64,000 nucleotides of DNA from Candidatus Gottesmanbacteria bacterium (GTDB lineage Bacteria > Patescibacteriota > Microgenomatia > JAMCYU01), in contig JAZDMI010000021.1 in NCBI GenBank assembly GCA_043801155.1, positions 2,683 through 66,682 on the forward strand, read 5' to 3'. Under the pieces are notes generated by a model, which was not told the DNA's origin, did no database searches, and saw only the letters and a program-made list of their open reading frames with translations. The translations under genes and the position numbers were made by a program. Below, piece after piece: positions 1,428-57,904 of this stretch; the first letter of the stretch is position 1; every line of letters starts with the position of its first letter.

Positions 1428-3701
1428 ATGGTTAGTCTTGCCCAAACCATAAATGAAATTAAGTCATTAAAAATTCAGGGTGCCACCAATGTTGCCCGTT
1501 CGGCGATCAGTATTTTAAGTGATGTTCCCCAGATTAGATTAAATGAGACAATTGACGAACTAATTTCTACCCGGCCAACCGAGCCATTGCTGCAAAACTG
1601 TCTTAATTTAGTTAAATTAAAAGGAAAAATTGTTATTCCATTGATTTTAGCAAGACTTGATAATATTGAGGATGAAATTGTTAAAAATGGTGCGTCTCTT
1701 ATTAAAAATGGTGACATAATTTTAACCCATTGTCATTCTTCATCGGTGGTTAAACTTTTTAAATATACCAAGAAAAAAGGAGTTGATTTTAAGGTTTATC
1801 TAACGGAAACCCGGCCGGTTTTCCAGGGAAGGATTACTGCCGGGGAATTAACTGAAGCCGGAATAAATTCAACCATGATTACTGATTCCGAGGCTTCCTT
1901 TGTAATCAGCAAAGAGGATAACCTGGATATTAACACAGTTTTTCTCGGAGCCGATGCCATCGACAAGAATGGATCAATATATAATAAAGTCGGCAGCTAT
2001 GGCATAGCTCTTTCAGCCTCAAAGGCCAATATACCTATATATATAGTATCCACCCTGCTTAAATTCTCGGTTAAACCGGTAATTATTGAAGAAAGAAAAG
2101 GCAAGGAAGTTTGGTCAAATAAGCCTAAAAATCTCAAAATATTTAATCCGGCTTTTGATAAAGTTCCGGCGGAATTAATCACCGGATTGGTTAGTGAATT
2201 TGGCATTATTAAACCCAAAAAAGTAAAATTCATGGTTAAAAAAAATTACCCTTGGATATTAACGGGTGAGACGCTGAGGTCGCCCATTAGCGATTTTTTC
2301 GGTACAAAACCTGCGAGGAGTCGTCCCGACTCTGTCGGGACTCCTTTCGTTCCTCAAAAATCGAACGGGCTCCCCGCGTCTCACGAAAAAAATTCGTTCT
2401 CCCCTTATAAGTCCTATTCGGCGCTTCAAGATTCCCGAGCTTACAGCGAGGGTGAATTGAAGCAACGAAAAACACCTTACAGGTGTTATCTTCATCTTAA
2501 TGAAAAAGTTAACCTTAAAAATCACATTATGGCTGATTTTATTTTAACAGTTAATAAGGATGAGGATTTTTTGGAGGTTGCCGGCGGAATTGCCACCGAG
2601 TCTTCAATCGGCACCTGGACGCAAGTGACCACCCAATTAAAAAGCGTTTGGGAAAAACTTCATGCTAGGGTGCTTAAGGCAGATAAAAACAGCGGGTCTT
2701 TGCAGATTGCCTATCCGTTGGATCTTTTTGAAAAAGGGAATATTCCCCAATTATTGTCATCGATAGCCGGTAATGTCTATGGACTGAAGGAAGCTTCTTG
2801 TCTTAGATTGGATGATATTAACTTGCCCGAAAATTATGTTAAAACTTTTCCCGGGCCAGCTTTTGGCATCGATGGGATAAGAAAAATTACCGGTGTTTAC
2901 GGCCGGCCGTTAATTGGTTGTATCATTAAACCCAAATTGGGGCTGGACTGCGAAAAGCATTCAAAAATAGCCAAAGAAGTTTATGAGGGGGGAATTGATT
3001 TCGTCAAGGATGATGAAAACTTAACCTCTCAAGAATTTAATCCGTTTGAGAAAAGAGTTTCATTGATTATGAAATATTTAATTGACTCGCATCAATTAAA
3101 TAAAATATATGCTTTTAACGTAACCGCACCATCAGACAGAATGTTAAAAAGAGCTAATTTTATTAAAACCCATGGCGGAAATTGTGCGATGATTGATTTT
3201 TTAACGGCTGGTTTTTCCGGATTGCAGTCACTCCGTAGCGCTAATCTGGGTTTAATTATTCATGGCCATCGAGCTATGCATGCAGCTCTGGATAGAATAC
3301 CAAACCATGGCATATCAATGCTGGTCTTGGCAAAATTAGGAAGATTAGCAGGGTTGGATTCTTTGCATAGCGGAACAGTAATTGGTAAGATGGAAGGTGG
3401 AGAAAAAGAAATAATAAATATCAATAAATTTTTATTAGGCAGTTGGTATGGATTAAAACCGGTTTTACCGGTAGCCTCCGGAGGTTTGTATCCCGGATTA
3501 ATACCTGACTTAATCAAGATTTTAGGTAAGGATATTCTTTTAAATTTTGGCGGAGGGATTCACGGACATCCGCAAGGCTCAAAAATGGGTGCCATAGCAG
3601 TATTGGCGGCGGTTAAGGCTTATCAAAAAGGGATATCATTTTCAGAAAGTGCCAAAACCAATAAAGCCCTGGCAGTAGCTTTAGAGAAATGGCCAATATG
3701 A
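1428..3701 (+). CDS. single uninterrupted ORF: ribose-1,5-bisphosphate isomerase (e2b2/eIF-2B-like) domain (about 1428-2262) joined in frame, through a 65-aa linker encoded by a GC-rich palindromic element, to a form III-like RuBisCO large subunit (RuBisCO homology from about 2457; first ATG 2529; to 3701)
   Basis: The e2b2 part ends with NPAFDKVPAELITGLVSEFGIIKP, as the family does. The RuBisCO part carries ESSIGTWT, the catalytic KPKLG, GIDFVKDDENLTSQ, HGHRAMHAA and GGGIHGHP motifs. The ORF track shows no stop codon between the two. Confidence 0.6.
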   Translation: MVSLAQTINEIKSLKIQGATNVARSAISILSDVPQIRLNETIDELISTRPTEPLLQNCLNLVKLKGKIVIPLILARLDNIEDEIVKNGASLIKNGDIILTHCHSSSVVKLFKYTKKKGVDFKVYLTETRPVFQGRITAGELTEAGINSTMITDSEASFVISKEDNLDINTVFLGADAIDKNGSIYNKVGSYGIALSASKANIPIYIVSTLLKFSVKPVIIEERKGKEVWSNKPKNLKIFNPAFDKVPAELITGLVSEFGIIKPKKVKFMVKKNYPWILTGETLRSPISDFFGTKPARSRPDSVGTPFVPQKSNGLPASHEKNSFSPYKSYSALQDSRAYSEGELKQRKTPYRCYLHLNEKVNLKNHIMADFILTVNKDEDFLEVAGGIATESSIGTWTQVTTQLKSVWEKLHARVLKADKNSGSLQIAYPLDLFEKGNIPQLLSSIAGNVYGLKEASCLRLDDINLPENYVKTFPGPAFGIDGIRKITGVYGRPLIGCIIKPKLGLDCEKHSKIAKEVYEGGIDFVKDDENLTSQEFNPFEKRVSLIMKYLIDSHQLNKIYAFNVTAPSDRMLKRANFIKTHGGNCAMIDFLTAGFSGLQSLRSANLGLIIHGHRAMHAALDRIPNHGISMLVLAKLGRLAGLDSLHSGTVIGKMEGGEKEIININKFLLGSWYGLKPVLPVASGGLYPGLIPDLIKILGKDILLNFGGGIHGHPQGSKMGAIAVLAAVKAYQKGISFSESAKTNKALAVALEKWPI
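2266..2384 (+). repeat. GC-rich structured element: 9-bp terminal inverted repeats GTGAGACGC...GCGTCTCAC enclosing an imperfect 16-bp hairpin (GAGGAGTCGTCCCGAC-TCT-GTCGGGACTCCT). GC-rich sequence continues to about 2470 with a further small hairpin (ACACCT-TAC-AGGTGT) near 2474-2490
   Basis: Read directly; GC content is far above the surroundings; all three overlapping frames (one + and two -) are open here, as expected when AT-rich stop codons are depleted. Confidence 0.6.
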
Positions 3702-21460: not shown

Positions 21461-22654
21461 ATGGCAGATGAAGCCAAGAAAAAATACGAGAGGAGTAAAC
21501 CTCATCTTAATATCGGAACTATTGGACATGTTGACCACGGTAAAACTACTTTAACCGCGGCCATTACTCAAGTTTTGGCAAAAAAAGGTTTTTCCAAAGC
21601 TTTGAAGTATGATGAAATTGATAACGCTCCGGAGGAAAAAGCCCGGGGATTGACGATTGCTATTTCTCATGTTGAGTATGAAACGGAAAAACGCCACTAT
21701 GCTCATATTGATTGTCCGGGACACGCCGATTATGTTAAAAACATGATTACCGGCGCCGCCCAGATGGATGGAGCCATATTAGTTGTCTCCGCTCCGGATG
21801 GACCGATGCCGCAAACCAGAGAACATGTACTTTTAGCCAGACAAGTTAATATTCCGGCGATGGTGGTATTTTTAAATAAAGTTGATATGGTTTCGGATCC
21901 GGAACTTCTTGATCTGGTCGAAATGGAAATCCGCGAGTTGTTAAAGAAATACAAATTTGACGGAGATAAAGTACCCATCATCCGCGGTTCAGCCCTAAAA
22001 GCCCTTGACGGAGACGCCAAGGCTGAAGAAGCAATCATGGAATTGATGAAAGCAGTTGATGAATATATTCCGACACCAACTCGAGACCTCGATAAACCAT
22101 TCTTAATGCCAATTGAAGACGTATTCTCAATCAAAGGCCGAGGAACGGTTGTTACCGGCCGGGTTGACCGGGGAAAGGTCAAAGTCAACGAGGAGCTAGA
22201 GATTGTTGGTATTAAAGCCACGACCAAAACAGTGGTTACCGGTGTTGAAATGTTTAGAAAAACTCTTGATGAGGGACAAGCCGGAGACAATATCGGAGTT
22301 TTGCTTCGGGGTGTTGAAAAAGACGATGTCGAGCGAGGCCAAGTCTTGGCCAAGCCGGGATCAATTACTCCTCATACAGAATTTGAGGCCGAAGTTTATG
22401 TTTTAACCAAGGATGAGGGAGGCCGTCATACGCCTTTCTTTACCGGTTATCGGCCGCAATTTTATCTCAGGACAACTGATGTTACCGGTGAAGTAACCTT
22501 ACCCAAGGGTGTGGAAATGGTTATGCCCGGTGACAATACCAAGATGATGATTAAACTGATTGTACCGGTAGCAATTGAAGAGGGTTTACGATTTGCTATT
22601 CGTGAAGGTGGTCATACCGTCGGCGCCGGAGCAGTTAGTAAGATTATTGCCTAA
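21461..22654 (+). CDS. tuf: elongation factor Tu
   Basis: [22 protein letters not shown]. Confidence 0.98.
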
Positions 22655-22703
22655 TTAGATATTGATATTAGGAATTAGGAATTGGTAATTAAGAATTTAT
22701 TTT

Positions 22704-23012
22704 ATGCCAAAAGGCAGAATCCGTGTACGTTTAAAAGCTTATGACAGTCGGGTTTTAGATGCTTGCTGTCAGCAAATCCTTGATACGGCCGTACGGACCG
22801 GCGCTAAGGTCGTGGGTCCGATACCACTGCCAACAGACAAATCCCGTTATTCTGTTCCCAAATCCCCGTTTACCGACAAAGACAGCCGCGAAGATTTCCA
22901 AATAAGAACACATAAAAGATTAATTGATATCCTTGAGCCAACCGATAAAACCATTGATCAACTGGCCCACCTCGATCTACCTGCAGGAGTTGACATTGAA
23001 ATAAAGATGTAG
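22704..23012 (+). CDS. rpsJ: 30S ribosomal protein S10
   Basis: IRVRLKAYD...GPIPLPT. Confidence 0.95.
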
Positions 23013-23313
23013 ATCCCCACACTAATTTCCTATGTTTTATGTATACATTTTAAAAAGCAAAAAAGATGGAAATTTATACACAGGATCAACCAATGATTTA
23101 AAACGCCGTATTGAAGAACATAATTCAGGTTTAGTTTATTCGACGAAAAACCGAAAGCCATTTAAGTTAATATACTATGAAGCATATAGTGATGAAAGTG
23201 ATGCTAGAAATAGAGAGCACAATTTAAAGTTAAGAGCAAAAGCCCTAGGTCAATTAAAAAGAAGGATAAAGGAAAGTCTATCTAAATAATATAAATATAA
23301 TTAGTGTGGGGAT
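23013..23313. mobile_element. compact cassette: perfect 15-bp inverted repeats ATCCCCACACTAATT (23013-23027) / AATTAGTGTGGGGAT (23299-23313) bracketing a GIY-YIG ORF
   Basis: Inverted repeats read directly; they begin 1 nt after the rpsJ stop. Confidence 0.5.
23032..23289 (+). CDS. stand-alone GIY-YIG nuclease-domain protein (YhbQ/UPF0213-like)
   Basis: MFYVYILKSKKDGNLYTGSTNDLKRRIEEHN matches the GIY-YIG core. Confidence 0.8.
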   Translation: MFYVYILKSKKDGNLYTGSTNDLKRRIEEHNSGLVYSTKNRKPFKLIYYEAYSDESDARNREHNLKLRAKALGQLKRRIKESLSK

Positions 23314-23315
23314 AA

Positions 23316-23663
23316 ATGTCTGATATACAAAAATTAACCCAGCAAATTCTAAAATTTCGCAATAAAAGGGATTGGAAGCATTTCCATTATCCTAAGGACA
23401 TGGCCATTTCTTTGGCACTGGAGGCGGCCGAGGTTCTGGAACATTTTCAATGGAAAACCCAGGAAGAAGTTGAAGCGTATCTGAAGACGCATAAAACTCA
23501 TATCGCTGACGAACTGGCCGATGTTTTGTGGTGGGTGCTATTAATGAATCATGATTTGAATATTGATGTGATGAGGGCTTTCGATAAAAAATTAAAAATC
23601 AACGAAGAAAAATATCCGGTTGATAAAGCCAAGGGTACACATAAAAAATATACCGAGTTGTAA
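23316..23663 (+). CDS. MazG-like nucleotide pyrophosphohydrolase
   Basis: EAAEVLEHFQWK...ELADVLWWVLL, the EExxE/D motifs of the MazG family. Confidence 0.7.
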   Translation: MSDIQKLTQQILKFRNKRDWKHFHYPKDMAISLALEAAEVLEHFQWKTQEEVEAYLKTHKTHIADELADVLWWVLLMNHDLNIDVMRAFDKKLKINEEKYPVDKAKGTHKKYTEL

Positions 23664-23761
23664 GATGATATCTTTTATTTCTCAATAAATACTCTGACTT
23701 TAACTTCAATATTTGACCTCGGTGTTAAAATAGTAATTATTAGAATTATTAGGAGGCATAT

Positions 23762-23956
23762 ATGAGATATGAAAATAATTGTATGCATCCTGCCATTGTT
23801 TATATTCCGGATCTTAGGCCAGGGTCATATGATGCTAATGGTTTAATGGTTGGGTCACTGAAACATATTCCAAAAGAAAAAATTCAAAAGACAGATGTTT
23901 CAGCTAAATATAGACGAATAGGGCCTCCGATTCGTATTGTTGCCAAAGGGTATTAA
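23762..23956 (+). CDS. hypothetical protein (strong AGGAGG RBS)
   Basis: RBS aggagg 6 nt upstream; no known domain. Confidence 0.45.
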   Translation: MRYENNCMHPAIVYIPDLRPGSYDANGLMVGSLKHIPKEKIQKTDVSAKYRRIGPPIRIVAKGY

Positions 23957-23983
23957 ATTATTAATTTTCAATGTCGGCAACAT

Positions 23984-24358
23984 CTACTCTTTGTTTTTTT
24001 CTAATTCGTCTTTAATTTGCGGAGCGATATTATCCAAGAAAATCTGATCAACAAGTTCTTCGGTTATATGAGCTTCTCTTGGCCCAAAATGCTGCATAAA
24101 AACATGATGTTGCCCTATTTTATCCGGACTTAATTGTATTTGACAATAAGTATTGGGGAAGCTGCGGTGGATAAAATTACAAATGATTGTTCCACTTTTA
24201 AGCATAACTGTTTCCCATACAGAAATTTGATTTGGTTTCAAATCTTTATGTTTTGGAACTGGAATATCCTCTCCGACGAGCAGATAAACATCAGGCCAAT
24301 CTAAAGGATTGTACTCATTAAGAGAAATTGGTTGTCTTTCTTGTTTAGAGTTATTCAT
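23984..24358 (-). CDS. hypothetical protein
   Basis: 124-aa ORF directly following a truncated paralog gene start. Confidence 0.5.
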   Translation of the reverse strand: MNNSKQERQPISLNEYNPLDWPDVYLLVGEDIPVPKHKDLKPNQISVWETVMLKSGTIICNFIHRSFPNTYCQIQLSPDKIGQHHVFMQHFGPREAHITEELVDQIFLDNIAPQIKDELEKNKE

Positions 24359-24360
24359 AT

Positions 24361-24396
24361 TTAAACTTGTTCTCGAGCTTCAGGATTTATTGACAT
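24361..24396 (-). pseudogene. 11-codon remnant (MSINPEAREQV*) of a third copy of the 25620..25982 family, with its promoter/leader module retained upstream (24397-24450)
   Basis: Nucleotide similarity to the start of 25620..25982 (ATGGCAATAAATCCTGAAACTCTAGAACAA). A 4-nt deletion creates the TAA stop. Confidence 0.45.
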
Positions 24397-24550
24397 AAGA
24401 AAGATATTCTACACATTCAAGTTATAATATACAAATCCTGACTAATTCCCACATCGGTATTCTACCGAAACGGCTTTCCATATAAATGTGCCATTTCTGA
24501 GTGAGACACACTATGATAAAATGGGAACAATAACGGAAAGAAATTAACAC

Positions 24551-25057
24551 ATGTCTAAAACAAAAACAAATGAAATTGTTTATGCATTTATAGATAGCCA
24601 GAATCTCAATTTAGGAGTCAGGAGTCAAAATTGGATTTTAGATTTTGACCGTTTTCGTGTTTATTTAAAAGAAAAGTACGGAACAAAGAAAGCATTTTTG
24701 TTTATAGGTTATGTTGAAGGCAATCAAAGCTTATACACATATTTACAAAAATCCGATTATATATGCATATTTAAGCCTACGTTGGAACTTAATAAAAATA
24801 AAAAAGTAAGAATAAAAGGTAATGTTGATGCTGAATTAGTGCTTCATTCGATGATAGAGTATCCCAATTATGATAAGGCTATAGTTGTTTCCGGTGATGG
24901 AGACTTTCATTGTTTGGTGGAGTATTTAAAGGAGAAAAATAAGCTATTGAAAATAATTGTTCCAAATAGAAAATATTCTTCCCTGCTTAGAGAATTTAGT
25001 AACTATATAGTTAATATAGGGTTGATGCGAAGCAAGTTAGAATTGAGAAAGAAATGA
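24551..25057 (+). CDS. NYN-domain (LabA-like, PIN-related) protein
   Basis: VYAFIDSQNLNLG ... VVSGDGDF motifs typical of NYN/LabA. Confidence 0.65.
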   Translation: MSKTKTNEIVYAFIDSQNLNLGVRSQNWILDFDRFRVYLKEKYGTKKAFLFIGYVEGNQSLYTYLQKSDYICIFKPTLELNKNKKVRIKGNVDAELVLHSMIEYPNYDKAIVVSGDGDFHCLVEYLKEKNKLLKIIVPNRKYSSLLREFSNYIVNIGLMRSKLELRKK

Positions 25058-26183: not shown

Positions 26184-27056
26184 GTGATGAGATTAACGCG
26201 GTTACAGGTGATTTCTGAACTGTTTGCCCAGTACCAGACAAAAAAAATAAACAAAGAATCTCTTCTTTCTATGGTCGATGATGTGGAAATTGCAGAGAGG
26301 GTCTACAACTCCAATGCCATAGAAAACTCGACACTCACCTTGCCCGAAACGGAAAAAATCCTGCTTCAGCTTGAAGTGAATAGGCATATATCGCTTAGAG
26401 AAGTTTTTGAGGCAAAAAATTTAGCCCAAGTCTACAACTATATTAAAAATACTGCCCCTCAAAAACCACTTTCCCTAGATATGATTTTATTACTTCATAA
26501 AATCCTGCTTACCAATATCCGTGATGAAGTTGCAGGACAGTTTCGTACGGGAAACGAAATGGTGCGGGTAGGAAATCACATCGGCATACCCTCGGAATTT
26601 ATAAGTCAAAGGATTCAAGAAATGCTCGTTCAATATAATTCAGACATGGAAATTTCCTTTATTCATAAAATTGGCCGTTTACATGCGGAGTTTGAAAGTA
26701 TTCACCCTTTTATTGACGGAAATGGCAGGATCGGACGAGTTCTTAATAACTATTTACTTATCCGTGAAGGATTTCCTCCGATTATCGTTAGAAATAAAGA
26801 TAAAGAAACTTATTATGATGCCCTGCGTTCATATGACACTTCGCATAATTTTAAACCAATGATGCGCATAGTTGAGTTAGCTGTTTTAGAATCTTTTCAT
26901 AAACGTCTGGCTTACCTTGAGGGACAGCGGATAATTCCTCTTACTGAATATGCGGCTACTCAAAAAAGATCTTTCCATACTCTTTTAAATTCAAGCCGTC
27001 GTCAAACTATTCCTGCTTTTCGCGAGAAAGGCGTCTGGAAAATCGGAGTAAAATAG
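26184..27056 (+). CDS. Fic-domain protein (AMPylator / Fic-Doc family)
   Basis: Canonical Fic motif HPFIDGNGRIGR. Confidence 0.85.
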   Translation: MMRLTRLQVISELFAQYQTKKINKESLLSMVDDVEIAERVYNSNAIENSTLTLPETEKILLQLEVNRHISLREVFEAKNLAQVYNYIKNTAPQKPLSLDMILLLHKILLTNIRDEVAGQFRTGNEMVRVGNHIGIPSEFISQRIQEMLVQYNSDMEISFIHKIGRLHAEFESIHPFIDGNGRIGRVLNNYLLIREGFPPIIVRNKDKETYYDALRSYDTSHNFKPMMRIVELAVLESFHKRLAYLEGQRIIPLTEYAATQKRSFHTLLNSSRRQTIPAFREKGVWKIGVK

Positions 27057-27106: not shown

Positions 27107-27577
27107 ATGAAAATAAATAAACAAATAAAAATCGAAAAACTTACCGAGAAGAGGTTTAATGAAGCGGTTAATTTGGTTTTGGTCGCCAACCTTGATACGC
27201 GGGAAGAAATTGAACATCACCTAAAACATCTGGATGCCCATTATATTGCCCTTGATAATGATAAAATTGTCGGAGTTATCGGTTGGTATCAGGATAATGT
27301 TCATTATGCCAATGAGGCTATGGGTGATAAATTTCCCGGAGAAGAGGCCTACTGGGTGGGATTTTTTACCACTGATAAAAATTACCGGAGGCAGGGAATT
27401 GGTTTTGCCCTGCTTCAAAAATTGGAGCAGGTAATAAAAGAAAAAGGAGAGGATAAAATTTGGGTATCCTCGGTGCCGGAAACAAAAGACTATTATCAAA
27501 GACAAGGATTTGAATTAGTTTTAATGGGATATATCAACGGCAACCAAAAATGTTTTATGGTTAAAAAACTTCAGTAA
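27107..27577 (+). CDS. GNAT-family N-acetyltransferase
   Basis: Acetyl-CoA binding motif RRQGIGFALL. Confidence 0.8.
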   Translation: MKINKQIKIEKLTEKRFNEAVNLVLVANLDTREEIEHHLKHLDAHYIALDNDKIVGVIGWYQDNVHYANEAMGDKFPGEEAYWVGFFTTDKNYRRQGIGFALLQKLEQVIKEKGEDKIWVSSVPETKDYYQRQGFELVLMGYINGNQKCFMVKKLQ

Positions 27578-27623: not shown

Positions 27624-29099
27624 ATGTTTGAACAATCATTTAAAAATATTGATGATATTCTTCACCGGGATGCCGGATGCGCCACGGAATTAGATTATAT
27701 AGAACAAACTTCATGGATTCTATTCTTGAAATACCTTGATGATTTAGAGGAAACAAAAAGGAAAGAAGCGGTTTTAAAAAATAGACAATATGAATATATT
27801 ATTGCTCCTGAATTTCGCTGGAGCGCTTGGGCGGAACCAAAAACGAAAGATGGCAAATTAGATATGAATAAGGCGTTAACCGGAGACGATCTAAGAGACT
27901 TTGTAAATTTAAAACTTTTTCCATATCTTAAGAAATTTAAAATCGACAATAACGAGAATCAAACAACTATTGAATATAAAATTGGAGAAATTTTCAGTGA
28001 GCTAAAAAACAGGATTGAAAGCGGATACAGACTTCGTGAAATTCTTAACATTGTAGATACGATGCATTTTCGAACCGATAGCGATAAACACGAACTCTCA
28101 CATCTTTATGAAGCTAAAATTAAGAACATGGGAAATGCCGGACGAAACGGCGGAGAATATTACACTCCTCGTCCGCTTATTAAAACGATAGTTAAGGTGG
28201 TAATCCCAAAGATTGGCGATACTATATATGATGGAGCCTGCGGATCTGCCGGATTTCTAGTAGAGTCTTTTGATTATCTTAAACAAAGTAAAGAATTATC
28301 TACCTCAGAATCCGTAAAGCTACAAAATAATACTTTTTACGGTAAGGAAATAAAATCACTTGCATATATTATCGGTGTTATGAATATGATTCTTCATGGT
28401 ATTGAAGCGCCGAATATTCTCCATACAAATACGCTTGCTCAAAACATCAATGATATCGAGGAAAAAGATCGGGTTGACGTAATCCTTACGAATCCGCCAT
28501 TTGGTGCAGGAATAGGTCGGGAAATTCAGCAAAATTTTCCGATAAAAACCGGCGAGACGGCATATCTTTTCCTCCAACACTTTATCAAAATGCTCAAAGC
28601 CGGAGGAAAAGCCGGAGTGGTGATTAAAAATACTTTTCTTTCTAATACTGATAACGCATCCGCTTCGCTTCGTAAACGTCTTCTTGAGAGTTGTAATCTT
28701 CACACCGTGCTTGATTTGCCTGGCGGCGTCTTTACGGGAGCAGGTGTAAAAACCGTGGTATTGTTTTTTGAAAAAGGCTCGCCAACCAAAAAAGTATGGT
28801 TCTATCAGTTAAACCTTGACCGCAATCTAGGCAAAGGTAATCCCTTAAGCGAAGCGGATCTATCAGAATTCGTCGAACTGCAAAAAACCAAAGCAGGTAG
28901 CAAAAATTCTTGGAGCGTAGACATAAAAGATATTAATCAAACAACATTTGATTTATCGGTAAAGAATCCAAACAAAGGGAGAGAAGTAACCCTACGCGAA
29001 CCGAAAGAGATTTTGGAGGGAATGAGGAAGCTAGACAAGGAAAGTGAAAATACATTTAAGATTATTAAAAACATATTAAATACTGGAATAAATGAATAA
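27624..29099 (+). CDS. hsdM: type I restriction-modification system methyltransferase subunit
   Basis: N6-adenine MTase motifs: GEYYTPRP (motif I region), LTNPPFG (motif IV). Confidence 0.92.
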   Translation: MFEQSFKNIDDILHRDAGCATELDYIEQTSWILFLKYLDDLEETKRKEAVLKNRQYEYIIAPEFRWSAWAEPKTKDGKLDMNKALTGDDLRDFVNLKLFPYLKKFKIDNNENQTTIEYKIGEIFSELKNRIESGYRLREILNIVDTMHFRTDSDKHELSHLYEAKIKNMGNAGRNGGEYYTPRPLIKTIVKVVIPKIGDTIYDGACGSAGFLVESFDYLKQSKELSTSESVKLQNNTFYGKEIKSLAYIIGVMNMILHGIEAPNILHTNTLAQNINDIEEKDRVDVILTNPPFGAGIGREIQQNFPIKTGETAYLFLQHFIKMLKAGGKAGVVIKNTFLSNTDNASASLRKRLLESCNLHTVLDLPGGVFTGAGVKTVVLFFEKGSPTKKVWFYQLNLDRNLGKGNPLSEADLSEFVELQKTKAGSKNSWSVDIKDINQTTFDLSVKNPNKGREVTLREPKEILEGMRKLDKESENTFKIIKNILNTGINE

Positions 29100-29730
29100 T
29101 TTATTAGCCTTGTTAGAGAAATATCAGACCCAAAATATTATCGCCGTCATAGCTTTAATATTGGCTTATTTAGCGTACAGAAAATCGGTTATTGATGAGT
29201 ATAGGAGTTGGTTGGATCTGGCAAAATCTTTCCAACACGAATTGAATTACGCAAAATATTGGATAGGAAATAGTTATGAAAAGATGATGAGTATAGATTG
29301 GTCGAATCCCTCCAGATTTGTTTATCCTCTTACCGCCGAAGCCGCGAAAGCGTTAATTTGGAAAGGACATCCGCCAAAGAGAATATTCCCAGATGATTTT
29401 TTTGATAAATTAGCTATATATAACGAACGTATTCAGGCATTTAACCATTTTTTAATGATTCAAGGAATCAATTATGTAGTGGCGGAAGTTGATAATAAAA
29501 ATGAAAAAATTTCAGAAAAAGCAAAGCATATTAATTATATCATCCATAATGATCTTATAGGTAGCCAGGATAATTATCACTTACACAATCTTTATAATTA
29601 TTTTAGTTGTCAATTGAAAATGATTGAAAAAGCAGATCTTTTGCTGATTCCATGGTATTTTAAATATCCTGAACGAATAGTTCTTGCTACTATTTTTATT
29701 TATATTATAGTTGATTATTTTATTCAGTGA
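29092..29730 (+). CDS. hypothetical membrane protein embedded between hsdM and hsdS (translationally coupled at both ends)
   Basis: Overlaps the hsdM stop by 8 nt and the hsdS start by 4 nt; N- and C-terminal hydrophobic segments; no known domain. Confidence 0.55.
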   Translation: MNNLLALLEKYQTQNIIAVIALILAYLAYRKSVIDEYRSWLDLAKSFQHELNYAKYWIGNSYEKMMSIDWSNPSRFVYPLTAEAAKALIWKGHPPKRIFPDDFFDKLAIYNERIQAFNHFLMIQGINYVVAEVDNKNEKISEKAKHINYIIHNDLIGSQDNYHLHNLYNYFSCQLKMIEKADLLLIPWYFKYPERIVLATIFIYIIVDYFIQ

Positions 29731-30884
29731 TTATGAAAACCAACTGGCAAACAAAAAAACTCGAAGATGTAGCAAATGTTCATGGTGGTGGTACTCCACC
29801 AACCAGTCACCCAGAATATTTTCAAGGAAATATAAATTGGTATTCTCCAACTGAGATACCTAAATTCGAAGTTACAACGCTCAAAGAAAGTCAGAAAAAA
29901 ATTTCCGATTCTGCAATAAAATTTACTACTATTTCAAGAACAAATTCAGTCCTTTTAACAAGCAGAGCTACAATTGGTACGGTTGGTATTTTGTCAACTG
30001 CTTCCGGATATAGTCAGGGCATAAAAGGAATCGAACCGGGTCCCGAACTAGACTCGTGGTATCTAGCGCATTGGTTGAGATCAAATAAAGATGAGATTAT
30101 TAATAAGGCTTCTGGTACAACCTTTAAGGAAATTAGTACAAGTGAAATAAAAAAGCTAGAAATTCCTATCCCTCCAATTGCTCAGCAAAAGAAAATTGTT
30201 AATTCCATAGAGAATATCTTGGGAAAAATTGAAAAGGCAAAAGAGAATACAGAGAAAAATCTGCAAAACGCCAAAGCTCTTTTTGAATCATATTTACAAA
30301 GTATTTTTGCGAATCCAGGAAAAGATTGGGAAGAGAAAAGATTAGGTGATGTTTGTATGGTCATTGCTGGTCAATCACCGGAAGGAAAATTCTATAACAA
30401 ATCGGGTAGGGGTTTACCTTTCTATCAGGGAAAAAAAGAATTTGAAGAAAGATATCTTGGGAAACCAACAACATGGACAACAGACATTACCAAAGAGGCG
30501 CAAAATGGTGATATTTTAATGTCAGTTCGAGCCCCTGTGGGACCTATTAATTTTGCAACTCAAAAAATTTGCATCGGTCGGGGTCTTACCGCAATTCGAG
30601 CCGGAAAAGATATTGATGAAAACTTTTTATTTTATAATTTACTCTCAAAAGAAAAAGAAATCATTGGTAATGCCGGAGCTGTATTTGCATCAATCAATAA
30701 ATCCGACATTGAGAGTTTAAAATTATTTTTACCATCTCTTCCCGAACAAAAATCTATTGATATAAAACTTGACACAATTTATGCCGAAACAAAAAAACTG
30801 GAAGCAATTTATAAACAAAAATTAGCTGATTTAGAAGAGCTAAAAAAATCGGTTTTGAGAAAAGCATTTAAAGGAGAATTGTAA
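29727..30884 (+). CDS. hsdS: type I R-M specificity subunit (two target-recognition domains)
   Basis: Duplicated TRD architecture with the conserved central (LAEQKKIV) and C-terminal (LPEQKSI) spacer repeats. Confidence 0.9.
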   Translation: MIMKTNWQTKKLEDVANVHGGGTPPTSHPEYFQGNINWYSPTEIPKFEVTTLKESQKKISDSAIKFTTISRTNSVLLTSRATIGTVGILSTASGYSQGIKGIEPGPELDSWYLAHWLRSNKDEIINKASGTTFKEISTSEIKKLEIPIPPIAQQKKIVNSIENILGKIEKAKENTEKNLQNAKALFESYLQSIFANPGKDWEEKRLGDVCMVIAGQSPEGKFYNKSGRGLPFYQGKKEFEERYLGKPTTWTTDITKEAQNGDILMSVRAPVGPINFATQKICIGRGLTAIRAGKDIDENFLFYNLLSKEKEIIGNAGAVFASINKSDIESLKLFLPSLPEQKSIDIKLDTIYAETKKLEAIYKQKLADLEELKKSVLRKAFKGEL

Positions 30885-30886
30885 TT

Positions 30887-31606
30887 ATGAAATATATAAA
30901 AAAGCTTAATATGGTTTGTTTTAACTTACTGGAACTGAAGACGCTATATAAGACTGACAAAGTAATAAAAATTCTTATAGAAGCAAATAAAACAAGGTGT
31001 AATATCGTTAATTCATCTAAAGAACAATCTAAAAAGATCGTAGATTCAGTCGTGAAAGGAGATTTAAAACAAAAGGAGGAAATTGAAATATTCTCGGCGT
31101 TAAGCTTATGTGCCTTATTTTTCGAGAATGATAGTTTTATAGGTTTCGTTTTGAAGGACGGCTATGATGTAGGAAAAAACCCAATACAAACATTAGAAGG
31201 TTTGAAAAAGGCTGCGAAAGAAGATACTCTTACTGATTTTGCAATTATCACCAAAAGTGGAATGCGAGAATTTCAGCTAAAACAATTTTATAGACAAAAA
31301 CTGGAGACGGAAGACCTTTTTAACTTTATAAAAGAAAAAATTGAACATTATGGTGGTAATTTTGGTACCACTGCTTTGTTATTCTCGGTTAGAGGTGATG
31401 GAATAGGACCTTGTCAAAGCAATATTTCTTTTAAAGAAATTCACGAGAGGCTTTGCAAACTTAATTTAGACAGAAATGGATTAATTTTGATTTGGTATAA
31501 TGATGGCAACAAAAAACAGGTGATAATTGAAGTTTATCCTGATTTATCGGCATGCCAAAAAGAAACAGGTATTCACGATCAAACAAAAAATACCCTATAT
31601 AATTAG
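30887..31606 (+). CDS. hypothetical protein embedded between hsdS and hsdR
   Basis: 3-nt gap after hsdS, 11 nt before hsdR; no Walker motif or known domain. Confidence 0.55.
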   Translation: MKYIKKLNMVCFNLLELKTLYKTDKVIKILIEANKTRCNIVNSSKEQSKKIVDSVVKGDLKQKEEIEIFSALSLCALFFENDSFIGFVLKDGYDVGKNPIQTLEGLKKAAKEDTLTDFAIITKSGMREFQLKQFYRQKLETEDLFNFIKEKIEHYGGNFGTTALLFSVRGDGIGPCQSNISFKEIHERLCKLNLDRNGLILIWYNDGNKKQVIIEVYPDLSACQKETGIHDQTKNTLYN

Positions 31607-31617
31607 ATCTAAAAATT

Positions 31618-33972
31618 ATGAACGAAGCAGAAACACGAGCCGAATATATTGATCCAAAACTGAAAGCTAGCGGTTGGGGAGAAGTTGAGGGATCAAAAGT
31701 ATTACGGGAATATCGTATCACCGAAGGACGGATTTTGGTTGGTGGAATACGTGCTAAACCGGAAATTGCTGATTATATCCTCGTATACAAAAACCAAAAA
31801 CTGGCAATTATTGAAGCAAAGCCGGATGAATCTGCCGTTACAGAGGGTGTCGCTCAAGCAAAAGTCTACGCCCAGAAGATGCAGATTGATTATACCTACT
31901 CAACCAACGGTAAAGAAATTTATCAAATTTCCATGAAATCCGGGAAAGAAGAGATTGTAGATGCGTTTTCGACCCCGGATGAGTTATGGAAAAAAGTGTA
32001 TTCAGATCAAAATGAATGGAAAGAGAAATTTGCTTCAATTCCTCTTGAGGGAGAATTAGGGAAACGATACTACCAGGAATCAGCCATTAATAACGTTATG
32101 AATGCGATTGCTGAAGATAAGAAACGAGTGCTACTTACTATGGCAACAGGAACCGGTAAGACAGCGATTGCATTTCAGACCTCTTGGAAGCTATATCAAA
32201 CGCGTTGGACTTTACAACGTGATGGAAATCGGCGTCCGAGAATTCTTTTTCTTGCCGATAGAAATATTCTTGCGGATCAAGCGTTTAATACCTTCGGTGC
32301 TTTTCCGGAAGATGCATTAGTTCGAATTAATCCTCTTGATATTCGGAGGAAGGGATTAGTTCCGATGAACGGAAGTATCTTTTTCACTATTTTTCAAACA
32401 TTTATGAGCGGACCGCAGGGAACACCTTATTTTGGTGATTATCCTCCTGATTTTTTTGATTTTATTGTCATTGATGAATGTCATCGTGGAGGAGCTAATG
32501 ATGAGGGAAACTGGCGCGGAATTTTAGAGTATTTTTCTCCAGCAGTTCAGCTTGGATTAACGGCCACACCAAAAAGAAGAGATAACGTAGATACATATAG
32601 ATATTTTGGCGATCCGGTATATATTTATTCACTTAAGGAAGGGATTAATGATGGATTTTTGACACCTTTTAAGGTGAAACGTATCCAAACAACCCTTGAT
32701 GAATATGTGTACACATCTGACGACCAAGTAATTGAAGGAGAAGTTGAAGCCGGTAAGGTATATAAAGAGCCTGATTTTAATAAAATCATAGAAATAAAAG
32801 AGCGCGAGGCAAAACGAGTTCAATTGTTGCTTGAGAATATAAACCAGAACGAGAAAACAATTGTTTTTTGTGCAACCCAGGATCATGCCCTAGCGGTACG
32901 GGATCTGGTAAATCAATATAAAAAAAGTAAAGATCCTTTTTACTGCGTCCGGGTAACGGCTAATGACGGAGCGCGTGGCGAGCAATATTTACGAGAATTT
33001 CAGGATAATGAAAAGACGATTCCTACGATATTAACCACTTCACAAAAGCTTTCTACTGGTGTTGATGCCAGAAATATCCGTAATATCGTTCTTATGCGTC
33101 CGGTTAATACCATGATCGAATTTAAACAGATTATTGGGCGTGGAACTCGGTTATTTGACGGAAAAGAATATTTTACAATCATTGATTTTGTTGATGCGTA
33201 TAAACTTTTTTTAGATCCTGAATGGGACGGCGAACCGATAGCGAATATTTGCCCAAAGTGTAACCAGGATCCCTGTATTTGCGAAAAAACTCCGCCGAAA
33301 GTTTGTCCTATTTGCGGGCAAAGACCGTGTATTTGTATTAGAGAACCAAGAATTTGTCCAATATGTGGAAAATTCCCATGTGAATGTGAATCAAAAAAGA
33401 AAATAAAAATAAAACTGCGCGATGGCAAAGAGCGAGAGATTCAACATATGATTTCTACTTCTTTTTGGGGGGCAGATGGTAAACCGATGTCGTCGGAGGA
33501 GTTTATTCAAAGCCTTTATGGAGTATTGCCGGATCTGTTTAAAAACGAAGAGGAACTTCGGAATATATGGTCAAATCCTGTGACAAGGAAACGATTTTTG
33601 GAACGGCTTTTTGATATTGGCATTGATTTAGAACAGATAGAAAATATTACCAAGATTGTTAATGCTGAACAATGTGATTTTTATGATGTGCTCTTGTATC
33701 TTGCATTTAGCAATCCACTCATTACACGTAAACAGCGGGCTGAGAAGAATAAAAATCATATTTTTGAAAATTTGTCTGATAAAGAAGGAGAATTTCTCAA
33801 CTTCGTACTGAAAAAATATGAAGAAACCGGATTTGAAGAACTTGACGAGGAGAAATTACCAATACTTCTGAATCTAAAATACCACGCTATTGCAGACGCA
33901 GAAGAAGCACTAGGAAATGTAGAAAATATTAGAGCAACATTCTTAGGATTTCAGGAAGATCTCTATAGCTAG
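31618..33972 (+). CDS. hsdR: type I R-M restriction subunit (PD-(D/E)xK nuclease plus SF2 helicase) with a C-terminal triple Cys-repeat
   Basis: ADYILVYKNQKLAIIEAK nuclease motif, TMATGTGKT Walker A, VIDECHRG DEAH box; three CPxCxxxPCxC repeats at approx 33247-33400. Confidence 0.9.
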   Translation: MNEAETRAEYIDPKLKASGWGEVEGSKVLREYRITEGRILVGGIRAKPEIADYILVYKNQKLAIIEAKPDESAVTEGVAQAKVYAQKMQIDYTYSTNGKEIYQISMKSGKEEIVDAFSTPDELWKKVYSDQNEWKEKFASIPLEGELGKRYYQESAINNVMNAIAEDKKRVLLTMATGTGKTAIAFQTSWKLYQTRWTLQRDGNRRPRILFLADRNILADQAFNTFGAFPEDALVRINPLDIRRKGLVPMNGSIFFTIFQTFMSGPQGTPYFGDYPPDFFDFIVIDECHRGGANDEGNWRGILEYFSPAVQLGLTATPKRRDNVDTYRYFGDPVYIYSLKEGINDGFLTPFKVKRIQTTLDEYVYTSDDQVIEGEVEAGKVYKEPDFNKIIEIKEREAKRVQLLLENINQNEKTIVFCATQDHALAVRDLVNQYKKSKDPFYCVRVTANDGARGEQYLREFQDNEKTIPTILTTSQKLSTGVDARNIRNIVLMRPVNTMIEFKQIIGRGTRLFDGKEYFTIIDFVDAYKLFLDPEWDGEPIANICPKCNQDPCICEKTPPKVCPICGQRPCICIREPRICPICGKFPCECESKKKIKIKLRDGKEREIQHMISTSFWGADGKPMSSEEFIQSLYGVLPDLFKNEEELRNIWSNPVTRKRFLERLFDIGIDLEQIENITKIVNAEQCDFYDVLLYLAFSNPLITRKQRAEKNKNHIFENLSDKEGEFLNFVLKKYEETGFEELDEEKLPILLNLKYHAIADAEEALGNVENIRATFLGFQEDLYS

Positions 33973-44274: not shown

Positions 44275-44582
44275 TGGGAATAATCAAGGGCTACCTTTTC
44301 GCTGATCTTAATTCCTTTTTCCTTTATTGTTCCCGGGGGTAATTCAAGAACGTCTTTGTATTGGGGAGGCCAAAAGAAAAGGCGGCTAGCTGGAAGGGAA
44401 TGAATCATCTTTACTACTTGTTTATTACTATCCAGAATTAGTACATCAATCGGAGATTTCATTCCAAAAGTATGGATACCGAAGCGGGTCGTAAAATAAA
44501 TTGGATAAATGTTTTTTTGTCCGATTAGTCCGACCGATTTTTCTATAAAGCTATGTAATGCCTTGACTTTAAGAAGAATCAT
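44271..44582 (-). CDS. DUF192-family protein
   Basis: Conserved HTFGM...PIDVLILD pattern; 4-nt overlap with obg upstream. Confidence 0.55.
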   Translation of the reverse strand: MILLKVKALHSFIEKSVGLIGQKNIYPIYFTTRFGIHTFGMKSPIDVLILDSNKQVVKMIHSLPASRLFFWPPQYKDVLELPPGTIKEKGIKISEKVALDYSH

Positions 44583-45520
44583 GAGGTTAACAACTCTTTT
44601 AATTTTTTTATACTTTTATCATCAAGGATAGAAATCGGCAGAACCTGGCCGAATTTTTGTAACATCTTTCGTTTTTCTTTTAACTCTTCTTTGGCGACTA
44701 AATCAGATTTGGTTAATAAAATTATTTCCGATTTTTGGATTAAAAGGGGATTGAATTTTTGCAGTTCCTGACGGACGGTTTGGTAATCATTTAAAACATT
44801 TTTTGATTCTACCGATACACAATGCAGAATTAAGTTTACCTTTTCAATATGTTTAAGAAAACTTATTCCTAAACCTTTTCCTAAAGAAGCACCTTCAATA
44901 AGACCGGGGATATCGGCAATAATTTTTTTAGCCATGACTCCCAGATTGGGTTCGATCGTCGTAAATGGGTAGTCGGCGACTTTAACATTGGCGCAGGTGA
45001 GTTCATTTAAAAGGCTGCTTTTGCCGGCGTTTGGCAGACCGATTAAGCCATAGTCAGCGATTAATTTTAAGACTATTTTAAGATTTTTTTGTTGTCCGGG
45101 TTCTCCGGCTTCGGCTTTTAAAGGAGTGGTATTAGTCGGTGAAGTCAGATCATGAGTGCCTTGGCCGCCCTTTCCACCTTTACAGATTAAAACCTTCTGT
45201 TCGATATTGCTTAATTCAATGGCTTCGTTAGTTTCCTGATCAGTAATAATACTTCCCTGAGGCAAGGCAATGGTAATATCTTTTCCGTTTCTACCTGTTT
45301 TATTAAATTTTCCGCCATTTTGTCCGTCTTCGGCTCTTCTGGTTTTTTTGCCCATAAATTGATTAAGAGATGTCAAATCAGAAGTGACTGTCAGATAAAT
45401 ATTCCCGCCTTTTCCGCCGTTGCCGCCGTCAGGACCGGTTCTTTCTCCGGGGTAAAATGAGACTTTACCCGCGCCGCCACTGCCGGCCGTAAAAATTACT
45501 TCGACTTCATCAACAAACAT
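44579..45520 (-). CDS. obg: GTPase Obg (short form lacking a C-terminal extension)
   Basis: Gly-rich Obg fold N-terminus (GGNGGKGGNIY), G domain GLPNAGKSSL. Confidence 0.85.
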   Translation of the reverse strand: MFVDEVEVIFTAGSGGAGKVSFYPGERTGPDGGNGGKGGNIYLTVTSDLTSLNQFMGKKTRRAEDGQNGGKFNKTGRNGKDITIALPQGSIITDQETNEAIELSNIEQKVLICKGGKGGQGTHDLTSPTNTTPLKAEAGEPGQQKNLKIVLKLIADYGLIGLPNAGKSSLLNELTCANVKVADYPFTTIEPNLGVMAKKIIADIPGLIEGASLGKGLGISFLKHIEKVNLILHCVSVESKNVLNDYQTVRQELQKFNPLLIQKSEIILLTKSDLVAKEELKEKRKMLQKFGQVLPISILDDKSIKKLKELLTS

Positions 45521-57416: not shown

Positions 57417-57438
57417 GGTGCAGTCGGCACCTTTTTTT
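57417..57438 (+). promoter_or_regulatory. leader hairpin GGTGC-AGTCG-GCACC plus T7 (terminator-like) between promoter and rplC start, with an alternative pairing GTGATTTCA (approx 57362) / TGAAATCAC (approx 57444): putative attenuator
   Basis: Stems read directly. Confidence 0.4.
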
Positions 57439-57466
57439 GTGCCTGAAATCACTTAAACTAAAAAAT

Positions 57467-57904
57467 ATGACAATTGTATTTAAGGGTAAAAAAATTAGTC
57501 AGGGTGAAAAGTTTACCGATGAAGGCTGGCGGATTCCCGTCACCAGCATTCAACTGGATAAAGATACCAATTTGACCGAAGGTCTTCAGGTTGGCGACAA
57601 GGTTAAAGTAAGCGGTACTTCCCGGGGTAAAGGCTTTGCGGGTGTTGTTAAGCGGTGGAAATTTGCCGGGGGGCCGAAAACCCACGGTCAATCAGATCGG
57701 GAGCGTGCTCCTGGTTCAATTGGACAAACAACCACACCGGGCCGGGTATATAAAGGTAAACGAATGGCTGGCCGAATGGGTGGAGATAAAGTAACAATTT
57801 CCGGTTTGAAAGTTGTTGAAATTAAATCAGAAGAAAAAATATTAATTGTTAAAGGTTTAATTCCGGGTCCGATCAAAGGTTTAGTTAAAATAAGTAAACC
57901 ATAA
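57467..57904 (+). CDS. rplC: 50S ribosomal protein L3 (shortened form)
   Basis: SGTSRGKGFAGVVKRWKF...GSIGQTTTPGRVYKGKRMAGRMG conserved core; ATG at 57467 preferred over the TTG at 57437. Confidence 0.85.
   Translation: MTIVFKGKKISQGEKFTDEGWRIPVTSIQLDKDTNLTEGLQVGDKVKVSGTSRGKGFAGVVKRWKFAGGPKTHGQSDRERAPGSIGQTTTPGRVYKGKRMAGRMGGDKVTISGLKVVEIKSEEKILIVKGLIPGPIKGLVKISKP

Follow-up and report, generated by a model that had tools for sequence, protein, structure and literature searches.

A family of miniature GIY-YIG nuclease cassettes with split palindromic arms, and its copy behind rpsJ in Candidatus Gottesmanbacteria

1. Introduction

Single-domain GIY-YIG nucleases of the Ssn type bind a hairpin, the NTS or SRM, which flanks their own gene, and cut just upstream of this hairpin in single-stranded DNA (ssDNA) and in ssDNA only (Chenal et al., Nat Commun 2025, PMC11893778). 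Cutting persists when the two halves of the hairpin are placed on separate oligonucleotides or when the loop is extended, and the authors remarked on the layout NTS-ssnA-NTS, which is like that of an insertion sequence (IS) (PMC11893778). A protein is counted as Ssn there if it gives a tblastn match with E<1e-10 over >75% of SsnA of N. meningitidis, or if cd10448 is its top CDD hit (PMC11893778). Ssn with its NTS is the closest known system to the unit which is described here. This unit of 301 bp occupies positions 23013–23313 on the plus strand of a stretch of 64,000 nucleotides from Candidatus Gottesmanbacteria (contig JAZDMI010000021.1), the whole of which is called the window in the following, and contains a gene for a GIY-YIG protein of 85 amino acids between two inverted arms.

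Like the Ssn enzymes, which form a class of about 90 amino acids, the window protein is a single GIY-YIG domain without a DNA-binding domain, and its gene has a cognate G/C-rich palindromic motif on both sides. The stem of the NTS, ATCCCCGCG/CGCGGGGAT, resembles the arms in the window, ATCCCCACAC/GTGTGGGGAT. A location inside operons is also common to both: in the positive control, plasmid AZO_p3 of Azospirillum lipoferum (L179, 879–1414), the Ssn gene stands between sufB and sufC together with four NTS copies (CGTCATCCCCGCGAAGGCGGGGATCCAG), and is thus another nuclease gene inside an essential operon. In contrast to Ssn, which has complete hairpins on each side, the window gene is enclosed by the palindrome, a half-site of which stands on either side. 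The 5' GTC and 3' C signature of Ssn is missing from the window cassette, and the genome-wide amplification of the motif was not seen for the window family in the 64-kb window and the family loci.

The reading favoured here, to which we assign a probability of roughly 0.55, is that the unit belongs to a widespread family of mini nuclease-cassettes which would be spread and removed via their own split palindrome and host repair. It builds on the anatomy of the cassette, the conservation of the arm core, the compensatory evolution of the arms, the intact catalytic residues, the presence and absence at given sites, and the occurrence of multiple diverged copies. The family of these cassettes, which come and go in the ultra-small bacteria of the Candidate Phyla Radiation (CPR), is large and apparently undescribed. 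No description of the CPR cassettes emerged from a search of the literature; one study has a GIY-YIG protein on its list of genes acquired from Patescibacteria.

2. Anatomy of the cassette

The initial annotation of the window, made from the letters alone, had reported a GIY-YIG open reading frame (ORF) directly after rpsJ, bracketed by perfect 15-bp inverted repeats. Coordinates and exact complementarity were confirmed: 23013–23027 and 23299–23313 are exact reverse complements around an intact ORF of 85 codons, and the 301-bp unit fills the gap between rpsJ and a MazG-like ORF. Its parts and flanks are as follows.

22704–23012, plus strand: rpsJ (ribosomal protein S10), the 5' flank; Pfam Ribosomal_S10, E=2.1e-34
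23013–23313, plus strand: whole cassette of 301 bp, made up of left arm, 4-nt spacer, GIY-YIG ORF, 9-nt spacer and right arm
23013–23027, plus strand: left arm ATCCCCACACTAATT, consisting of the family-conserved outer core ATCCCCACAC and the lineage-specific inner part TAATT
23032–23289, plus strand: ORF of a predicted single-domain GIY-YIG nuclease, 85 amino acids; Pfam PF01541, E=1.5e-18
23299–23313, plus strand: right arm AATTAGTGTGGGGAT, by sequence the exact reverse complement of the left arm
23316–23663, plus strand: ORF of a MazG-like nucleotide pyrophosphohydrolase, the 3' flank, outside the cassette; Pfam MazG-like, E=4.2e-19

Read from the end of rpsJ, the order is AAG ATG TAG, ATCCCCACACTAATT, TCCT, the 85 codons from ATG to TAA, TATAAATAT, AATTAGTGTGGGGAT, AA and the ATG of the next gene. 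The left arm begins at the base next to the rpsJ stop codon TAG (23010–23012), and the right arm stops 2 nt short of the MazG-like ATG (23316). The G-run of the right arm lies 4 nt before this ATG and is Shine-Dalgarno-like; the nuclease ORF has no recognisable Shine-Dalgarno sequence. With a GC content of 0.30 the cassette differs from rpsJ and tuf (0.45). An imperfect extension of the arms, 31 nt at 77%, reaches into the ends of the ORF, and the perfect repeat is not longer than 15 bp.

Within the 64-kb window neither the 15-mer arm, with up to 3 mismatches, nor the 8-mer core CCCCACAC occurs again, and an amplification like that of repetitive extragenic palindromic (REP) sequences or of NTS was rejected, since the window has no further copy of the core. 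A GTAG-tagged REP was also dismissed: the GTAG ahead of the left arm comes from the rpsJ codons ATG TAG, and it is not kept in the other loci.

Taken alone, the repeat in the window only modestly exceeds chance. It is the longest perfect inverted repeat of the window with a loop of 20–400 nt, and a length of 15 bp was reached in none of 40 dinucleotide-preserving shuffles of the window, in which the maximum was 14. What makes the repeat certain is its recurrence: dozens of unrelated genomes have it around homologous genes.

3. A family with covarying arms

A search for other copies showed the same core flanking homologous GIY-YIG genes of 84–86 amino acids in many genomes and in unrelated contexts. 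Homologues of the window protein fall into at least 1,559 clusters, most of them 84–86 amino acids long and 70–82% identical to it. They come from many CPR classes as well as from bins of Omnitrophota, Planctomycetota, Elusimicrobia and Nitrospinota. The same arrangement is found with homologues of 51–82% identity in other CPR and in other uncultivated phyla. The contexts include the junctions of wzm with wzt and of ftsH with a tRNA gene, positions upstream of tRNA genes, and others. A homologue with 76% identity, located between wzm and wzt, has its ORF within a perfect 23-bp repeat, TTTAGCCCCACACTTAATTATTT, the core of which is the same as in the window.

Three sets of loci were used, 82 loci to test for the repeat, 85 loci to count copies and neighbours, and an alignment of 45 loci to assess covariation. 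In 55 of the 82 loci the ORF stands between the copies of an exact repeat of 10 bp or more, compared to 13 of 637 control placements (2%), and an exact repeat of at least 12 bp spans the ORF borders in 43 of the 82 loci and in none of the 637 controls. On the left the outer part of the arms is conserved as (A/T)CCCC(C)ACAC(C/T), and on the right as the complement of this sequence. GIY-YIG loci totalling 444 kb contain the 10-mer CCCCCACACC 59 times, nearly always at the gene, and S10 loci from CPR totalling 367 kb do not contain it. The inner part is lineage-specific (TAATT, TTAATCAAATT, CAATTATGTTT, CTGTTTTCTTA, TTTTAAGCAT and others), with the complement kept on the opposite side. This holds even where the right inner arm consists of the last codons of the ORF plus its stop codon, which still match the left side; in several loci the arms take in both start and stop codon.

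In the 45-locus alignment 84.6% of the cells pair, compared to 65.0 +/- 1.0 in shuffles, a percentage which is inflated by the selection of these loci for the repeat and their anchoring on it; the compensatory pattern cannot be created in this way. Compensatory changes were found in 23 of the 24 pairs. Cells changed on both sides numbered 190, compared to 68 +/- 6 in shuffles and 49–74 with slid partners.

An expanded form of the cassette, about 555 bp long, is found at 2920–3475 of locus L005. Its left arm lies 80 nt upstream of the ORF; behind this arm a 33-nt unit with a GGGGG-TAAA-CCCC mini-hairpin is duplicated in tandem, and the right arm stands 185 nt past the ORF directly before the ATG of ftsK (GGGGGTAAATGTCT; compare GGGGATAAATGTCT in the window).

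4. Filled sites, empty sites and solo arms

The cassette is gained or lost at gene junctions, and presence and absence were observed at three kinds of site. The first is the window site. The initial annotation had suggested looking for rpsJ directly followed by the downstream sequence, and such a site is present in six related loci (L250–L255, one metagenome-assembled genome (MAG) from NCBI and five sequencing runs), which were reached through homologues of the MazG-like protein and are 93% identical to the window in EF-Tu, 92% in S10 and 77% in the MazG-like protein. Here rpsJ is followed by 14 nt and the orthologous MazG-like gene, with neither a nuclease ORF nor a right arm. The junction reads ATG TAA, ACCCCCACACCCAA, ATG GCA AAC TCT GAC ATT CAA AAA, and the 14 nt (2487–2500 in L250 and the same in L251–L255) contain a single arm core, ACCCCCACACC. 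None of 80 other S10 loci has the arm motif after rpsJ. As the motif is otherwise tied to cassettes, the more economical explanation of this solo arm is that it is the footprint of a lost cassette; the alternative is a pre-existing target for insertion.

The second kind of site lies between wzm and wzt, which is filled in the related loci L001 and L228 and empty in the syntenic loci L244 and L246 (Wzm 73–77% identical). At the empty sites the genes overlap by ATGA or stand 6 nt apart (TTTTTT), without any motif, and the C-terminus of Wzm (ADVI*) and the N-terminus of Wzt are intact at all filled and empty sites. The third is found among tRNA genes. Loci L020 and L026 are 92–100% identical across one cassette, tRNA-Ile and tRNA-Phe, and a second GIY-YIG ORF between these two tRNA genes is present in L020 and absent in L026.

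Two to three paralogues with 44–78% identity occur within 6 kb in 10 of the 85 loci, and in 21 of the 85 a tRNA gene starts between -15 and +45 nt from the stop codon of the ORF. In locus L056 (2436–3728) the order is tRNA-Ile, GIY-YIG ORF, tRNA-Val, GIY-YIG ORF, tRNA-Ala, GIY-YIG ORF, and a similar interleaving is seen in L020 (1734–2540) and L027 (1184–3952). In L020, L236, L049, L056, L061 and L067 the left flank repeats the first 7–16 nt of the tRNA which is entered by the right arm. These direct copies (GGGCGCG, GGGCACA, GGGGCCCTTAGC and others) resemble a target-site duplication, though of varying length, and form a small hairpin with the left arm.

Arms also occur without the gene. Pairs enclosing only about 65–150 nt are located at 2222–2340 of L028 and 1521–1680 of L040, and a solo hairpin, ACCCCCACACCA-10 nt-TGGTGTGGGGGT, at 171–215 of L055, each a few kb from a full cassette. 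A stand-alone hairpin of the arm motif was also seen downstream of the ORF in L019. Such hairpins would be expected if the ORF had invaded a REP-like or terminator-like hairpin already present in the host, acting as a free-standing homing endonuclease which targets hairpin loops, and the local perfect CCCC...GGGG hairpins adjoining distant family members could be read in the same way. We regard this as improbable. The empty site between rpsJ and the MazG-like gene has one arm and no hairpin, the empty sites between wzm and wzt are free of the motif, and the motif is absent from the 367 kb of CPR S10 loci. Moreover, the arms evolve together with the gene, as the inner arm extends over the final codons of the ORF and covaries with the leader on the 5' side.

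The pairs of arms without an ORF are like miniature inverted-repeat transposable elements (MITEs), and a 300-bp unit bounded by inverted repeats has the general form of MITEs and IS elements. It could therefore be asked whether the cassette is an autonomous cut-and-paste transposon, in which the 85-residue GIY-YIG protein would be the transposase and the arms would be terminal inverted repeats that are bound in double-stranded form. The conserved outer core of the repeats and the direct repeats of 7–16 nt at the copies next to tRNA genes would fit. The sole ORF is GIY-YIG, however, and no known transposase fold (DDE, HUH, serine or tyrosine) is present. The inner repeats keep complementarity and not sequence, which fits a structure rather than a binding site in double-stranded DNA. 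No duplication accompanies the cassette at junctions of protein genes, and no identical copies were found in different contexts. A transposon of this kind therefore has, in our view, only a small chance of being the right description.

REP sequences with their associated RAYT transposases and the IS200/IS605 elements work with HUH/Y1 transposases and covalent intermediates. Inverted copies of a palindrome flank the gene of the putative recogniser in these elements as in the cassette, solo repeats remain, and a logic of single strands and hairpins would be common to both; unlike them, the cassette has no HUH/Y1 protein, and its motif is not amplified. Integron attC sites, IS200/IS605 and group I introns were rejected as assignments, as no matching recombinase, no ribozyme-sized non-coding sequence and no Rfam match was found. 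Cassettes as recombination breakpoints were also considered and discarded: between L001 and L228 high identity continues through the cassette and breaks inside wzt, and between L005 and L007 divergence starts 133 nt past the ORF and not at the arm. In viral contigs the pattern CCCCACACY-N(255-285)-RGTGTGGGG gave 44 matches, all of them chance and none with a GIY-YIG ORF, so carriage by phages is unsupported.

5. The encoded protein

The window protein matches Pfam PF01541 over residues 1–70 with 67.3 bits (cut-off 22.6), and the Pfam scan of this ORF found the GIY-YIG domain only and no DNA-binding domain. In an alignment of 30 sequences, which include Ssn, YhbQ and YazA/UPF0213, no variation is seen at Y5, Y16, G18, T20, R26, H30, E62 and K66. 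Judged by this alignment, the catalytic constellation (Y5, Y16, G18, R26, H30, E62) is intact in the predicted nuclease. The protein is 100% identical to that of an NCBI Candidatus Gottesmanbacteria MAG, which is contained in the protein collection; exact look-ups of this protein and of the S10 of the window gave no record. The group I intron endonuclease model of NCBIfam gives a score of 22.7, compared to a cut-off of 56.

Among solved structures the top sequence matches are the UPF0213 proteins 1zg2 (E=3e-9) and 1ywl (E=1.2e-5), with weak matches to SLX1. The small catalytic domain with the same invariant residues is thus shared with UPF0213/YhbQ/YazA and Slx1. The initial annotation had called the protein YhbQ-like; its assignment to GIY-YIG stands, and the affinity to YhbQ turned out to be no closer than that to Ssn. 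The window protein gives 46 bits and 38% identity with YazA and 39 bits and 30% with YhbQ, and its clade is as distant from YazA (44–58 bits) and YhbQ (32–41 bits) as it is from Ssn. Members of Ssn score 89–110 bits among themselves and 40–56 bits with the window clade, which by these comparisons appears as a separate clade from Ssn. The C-terminal Ssn motif KKW..WK..LIE..NP.W is absent from the window protein.

An ordinary housekeeping orthologue of YhbQ/UPF0213 with a chance or local repeat would be in line with the best structure matches and with the annotation of E. coli YhbQ as a DNA damage response nuclease; the yhbQ and yazA genes lie between ordinary housekeeping genes in the records retrieved. 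For the window gene this explanation is already refuted for practical purposes. The repeat is not unique to the locus, since it recurs and covaries in dozens of genomes, and instead of a single-copy gene at a fixed position the CPR family, with 30–38% identity to UPF0213/YhbQ/YazA, is bounded by repeats, varies in genomic position, is present or absent between close relatives and has multiple copies per locus.

Free-standing homing endonucleases are a further group of GIY-YIG proteins with comparable habits. The Seg proteins of phage T4 are encoded by free-standing genes of this kind, SegB in the T4 tRNA cluster. A nuclease gene between other genes, presence and absence among relatives and a frequent association with tRNA clusters are found in both cases. 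Seg and I-TevI have a C-terminal DNA-binding domain and at least 200 amino acids, unlike the window protein, which is a bare catalytic domain of 85 amino acids, and homing endonuclease genes are not known to be bracketed by inverted repeats.

At the border between the window family and Ssn, distant members near tRNA genes have local perfect CCCC...GGGG hairpins, and in one of them (L074) a canonical NTS is nearby. This suggests that the split palindrome and the complete hairpins of Ssn may form a continuum of architectures. Matches to the SRM motif number 2 in the 444 kb of family loci, neither of them adjacent to an ORF in the usual way, and 4 around the Azospirillum control. Canonical hairpins of the NTS-type SRM (TGTCATTCCCGCG.AGGCGGGAATC...) were noted in L015 at about 800 and in L074 at about 2839, the latter about 50 nt from a tRNA fragment upstream of the GIY-YIG ORF, and both genomes also carry a cassette of the CCCCACAC type. 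Seven distant members with 51–61% identity (L081, L089, L093, L074, L064, L057, L076) have a half-copy of the downstream tRNA within 130 nt before the ORF. This half-copy is broken by perfect CCCC-N-GGGG hairpins, e.g., CCCCGTCGCTCGCGAGCGACGGGG in the anticodon loop, and the 5' end of the intact tRNA reaches into the final codons of the ORF.

6. Pairing in DNA or in RNA

The initial annotation had also offered a long-range RNA stem as an alternative, and such a stem is indeed predicted. Both the minimum-energy and the centroid structure of the RNA from 23005–23322 contain the 15-bp stem, at -62.6 kcal/mol, and the end of rpsJ lengthens it by pairing with the start of the MazG-like gene. With the folding parameters for DNA a z of -1.8 was obtained. 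The arms may thus form a stem in the mRNA which loops out a domesticated nuclease ORF and limits its translation by burying the start region; the stem may further be a processing site of the RNase III type and couple the flanking genes, and any mobility would be incidental. Start and stop codons within the arms in several loci would suit such a device, and co-transcription is plausible, as no excess of promoters or terminators was found between rpsJ, the nuclease ORF and the MazG-like gene. The next start codon follows the right arm within 12 nt, with the G-run 2–9 nt ahead of it, in 20 of the 55 family loci with the repeat, and the C-rich left arm resembles an anti-Shine-Dalgarno sequence. 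U·G recurs at one outer position (TTTAC/GTGAA).

Selected RNA helices normally show a clear enrichment of G·U on one strand. In helix columns 6–22 of the alignment 686 Watson-Crick cells were counted together with 15 G·T/T·G and 15 A·C/C·A cells, so that wobble pairs are neither enriched nor biased towards one strand. As the complementarity is strict, the core sequence conserved and G·U not enriched, these patterns point to pairing of the arms at the level of DNA, probably with recognition by a protein. The conservation of CCCCCACACC across phyla is not explained by a pure need for structure, nor does an RNA device explain the solo arm at the empty site, gain and loss, and multiple copies. Among 4227 covariance models of Rfam, none matched either strand of 22000–25000 at E<=1. 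The RNA stem is therefore disfavoured, and we consider a role of the arms in RNA unlikely, though less so than the hairpin invasion and the transposon discussed above.

7. A possible mechanism

On the favoured reading each member of the family is a gene for a single-domain nuclease of 85 amino acids within its cognate palindrome; the first half-site precedes the start codon, and the second covers or follows the stop codon. When the locus becomes single-stranded during replication, repair or DNA uptake, the two arms could anneal. The encoded nuclease may then recognise the conserved C-rich/G-rich outer stem and nick beside it, as Ssn does; its substrate would accordingly be ssDNA. Host repair would copy the cassette into sites which bear the motif, or delete it from them, with cleavage as the driving force of gain or loss. 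Copying and deletion by repair would explain the filled sites, the solo arms, the solo hairpins and the pairs of arms without an ORF. Copies which do no harm would survive, i.e., those placed precisely between two operon genes or immediately 5' of a tRNA gene; in these the upstream stop codon is kept, and the G-run of the right arm can serve the next gene as ribosome-binding site.

A number of observations weigh against this favoured reading. GIY-YIG enzymes hydrolyse DNA, and catalysis of strand transfer is not known for them, so insertion at new sites would require a host pathway. A consistent target-site duplication is lacking at the protein-gene junctions (rpsJ with MazG-like, wzm with wzt). 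With 44–78% identity among paralogues no recent burst is visible, proteins found identical in up to 61 sample blocks always have the same context, and the core is not amplified, being found at the two arms only in the 64-kb window. In 27 of the 82 loci a repeat of at least 10 bp is missing at the ORF borders. The SRM motif HGTCWY..YYVSBRH..WNVSBRG..RNCYNB has 0 matches in the window. With the NTS-flanked Azospirillum Ssn, used as proxy for SsnA, the window protein shares 42% over 66 of 97 amino acids (56 bits), so it does not clearly fall inside Ssn by sequence, and it is no closer to UPF0213/YhbQ. The predicted RNA fold, finally, has a z of -3.55, with none of 100 shuffles as stable, which would speak for a role in RNA.

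The minimal selfish element proposed in the initial annotation is borne out as far as a cassette with other copies and an empty site is concerned; the words 'selfish' and 'homing' go beyond these observations and may or may not prove apt. A more far-reaching version would see in the family a distinct class of minimal mobile elements of about 300 bp, in which a nuclease of 85 amino acids, specific for both structure and sequence, recognises the ssDNA stem of its own split palindrome, and host repair places the cassette beside sites with the 10-nt CCCCCACACC, hairpin loops and tRNA 5' ends or deletes it from them. We put this version forward tentatively and hold it to be rather doubtful as a whole.

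8. The neighbourhood in the window

The cassette follows the genes fusA, tuf and rpsJ, and rplC with the remaining S10 operon resumes only at about 57.4 kb. The normally adjacent rpsJ and rplC are thus 34 kb apart (23013–57436). The interval contains genes of the defence or toxin type, namely NYN at 24551, Fic at 26184, GNAT at 27107, a type I restriction-modification system (hsdM/S/R, 27624–33972) and a PD-(D/E)XK nuclease at 36647, together with housekeeping genes for DegV, Obg (44579–45520, minus strand), a DEAD-box helicase and LytR. The interval was rejected as a pure genomic island, since it also holds obg and other housekeeping genes; as both groups are mixed, it is a split operon and not a clean island. 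In about 20 of 80 S10 loci from relatives, rpsJ and rplC are likewise parted, by 0.5 to >3 kb of other DNA, and from these gene orders the junction looks like a hot spot for insertions in CPR. A scan of metagenomes for S10 loci yielded no relative above 86% and no cassette 3' of rpsJ.

The ribosomal protein L3 of the window (57437–57904) is only about 150 amino acids long. Compared to the 217-residue L3 of L094, the closest relative in the S10 scan, its N- and C-terminal parts are kept and about 65 internal residues are gone. The MazG-like protein is identical to an entry from an NCBI Candidatus Gottesmanbacteria MAG. Its gene, of 115 codons, is one of the small and scattered members of a very large family (5,554 clusters at E<=1e-10) and is kept directly 3' of rpsJ in the closest relatives. 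It was rejected as a part of the cassette, as it has no linkage to GIY-YIG in the other 85 loci; a Sinorhizobium GIY-YIG gene which adjoins mazG is probably a coincidence.

9. Implications

The solo-arm 'empty' allele beside rpsJ is a direct test case for gain versus loss of the cassette. The cassette shows how a nuclease gene can sit harmlessly in the essential operons of a tiny genome, be it at rpsJ, between wzm and wzt or in tRNA arrays. If the proposed recognition of the arms holds, the family, with its at least 1,559 protein clusters in CPR and several uncultivated phyla, would be a second lineage of nucleases with a cognate palindrome, of an architecture different from Ssn in that the gene lies inside the hairpin. 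A large natural library of pairs of arm and enzyme would be on offer, and the covarying inner arms together with the conserved core suggest a programmable cleavage of ssDNA, of the kind which is of biotechnological interest in Ssn. If the reading as a minimal mobile element were true, no smaller mobile element with a gene for a protein would be known from bacteria, and the family would be a source of many new specificities of ssDNA nucleases.

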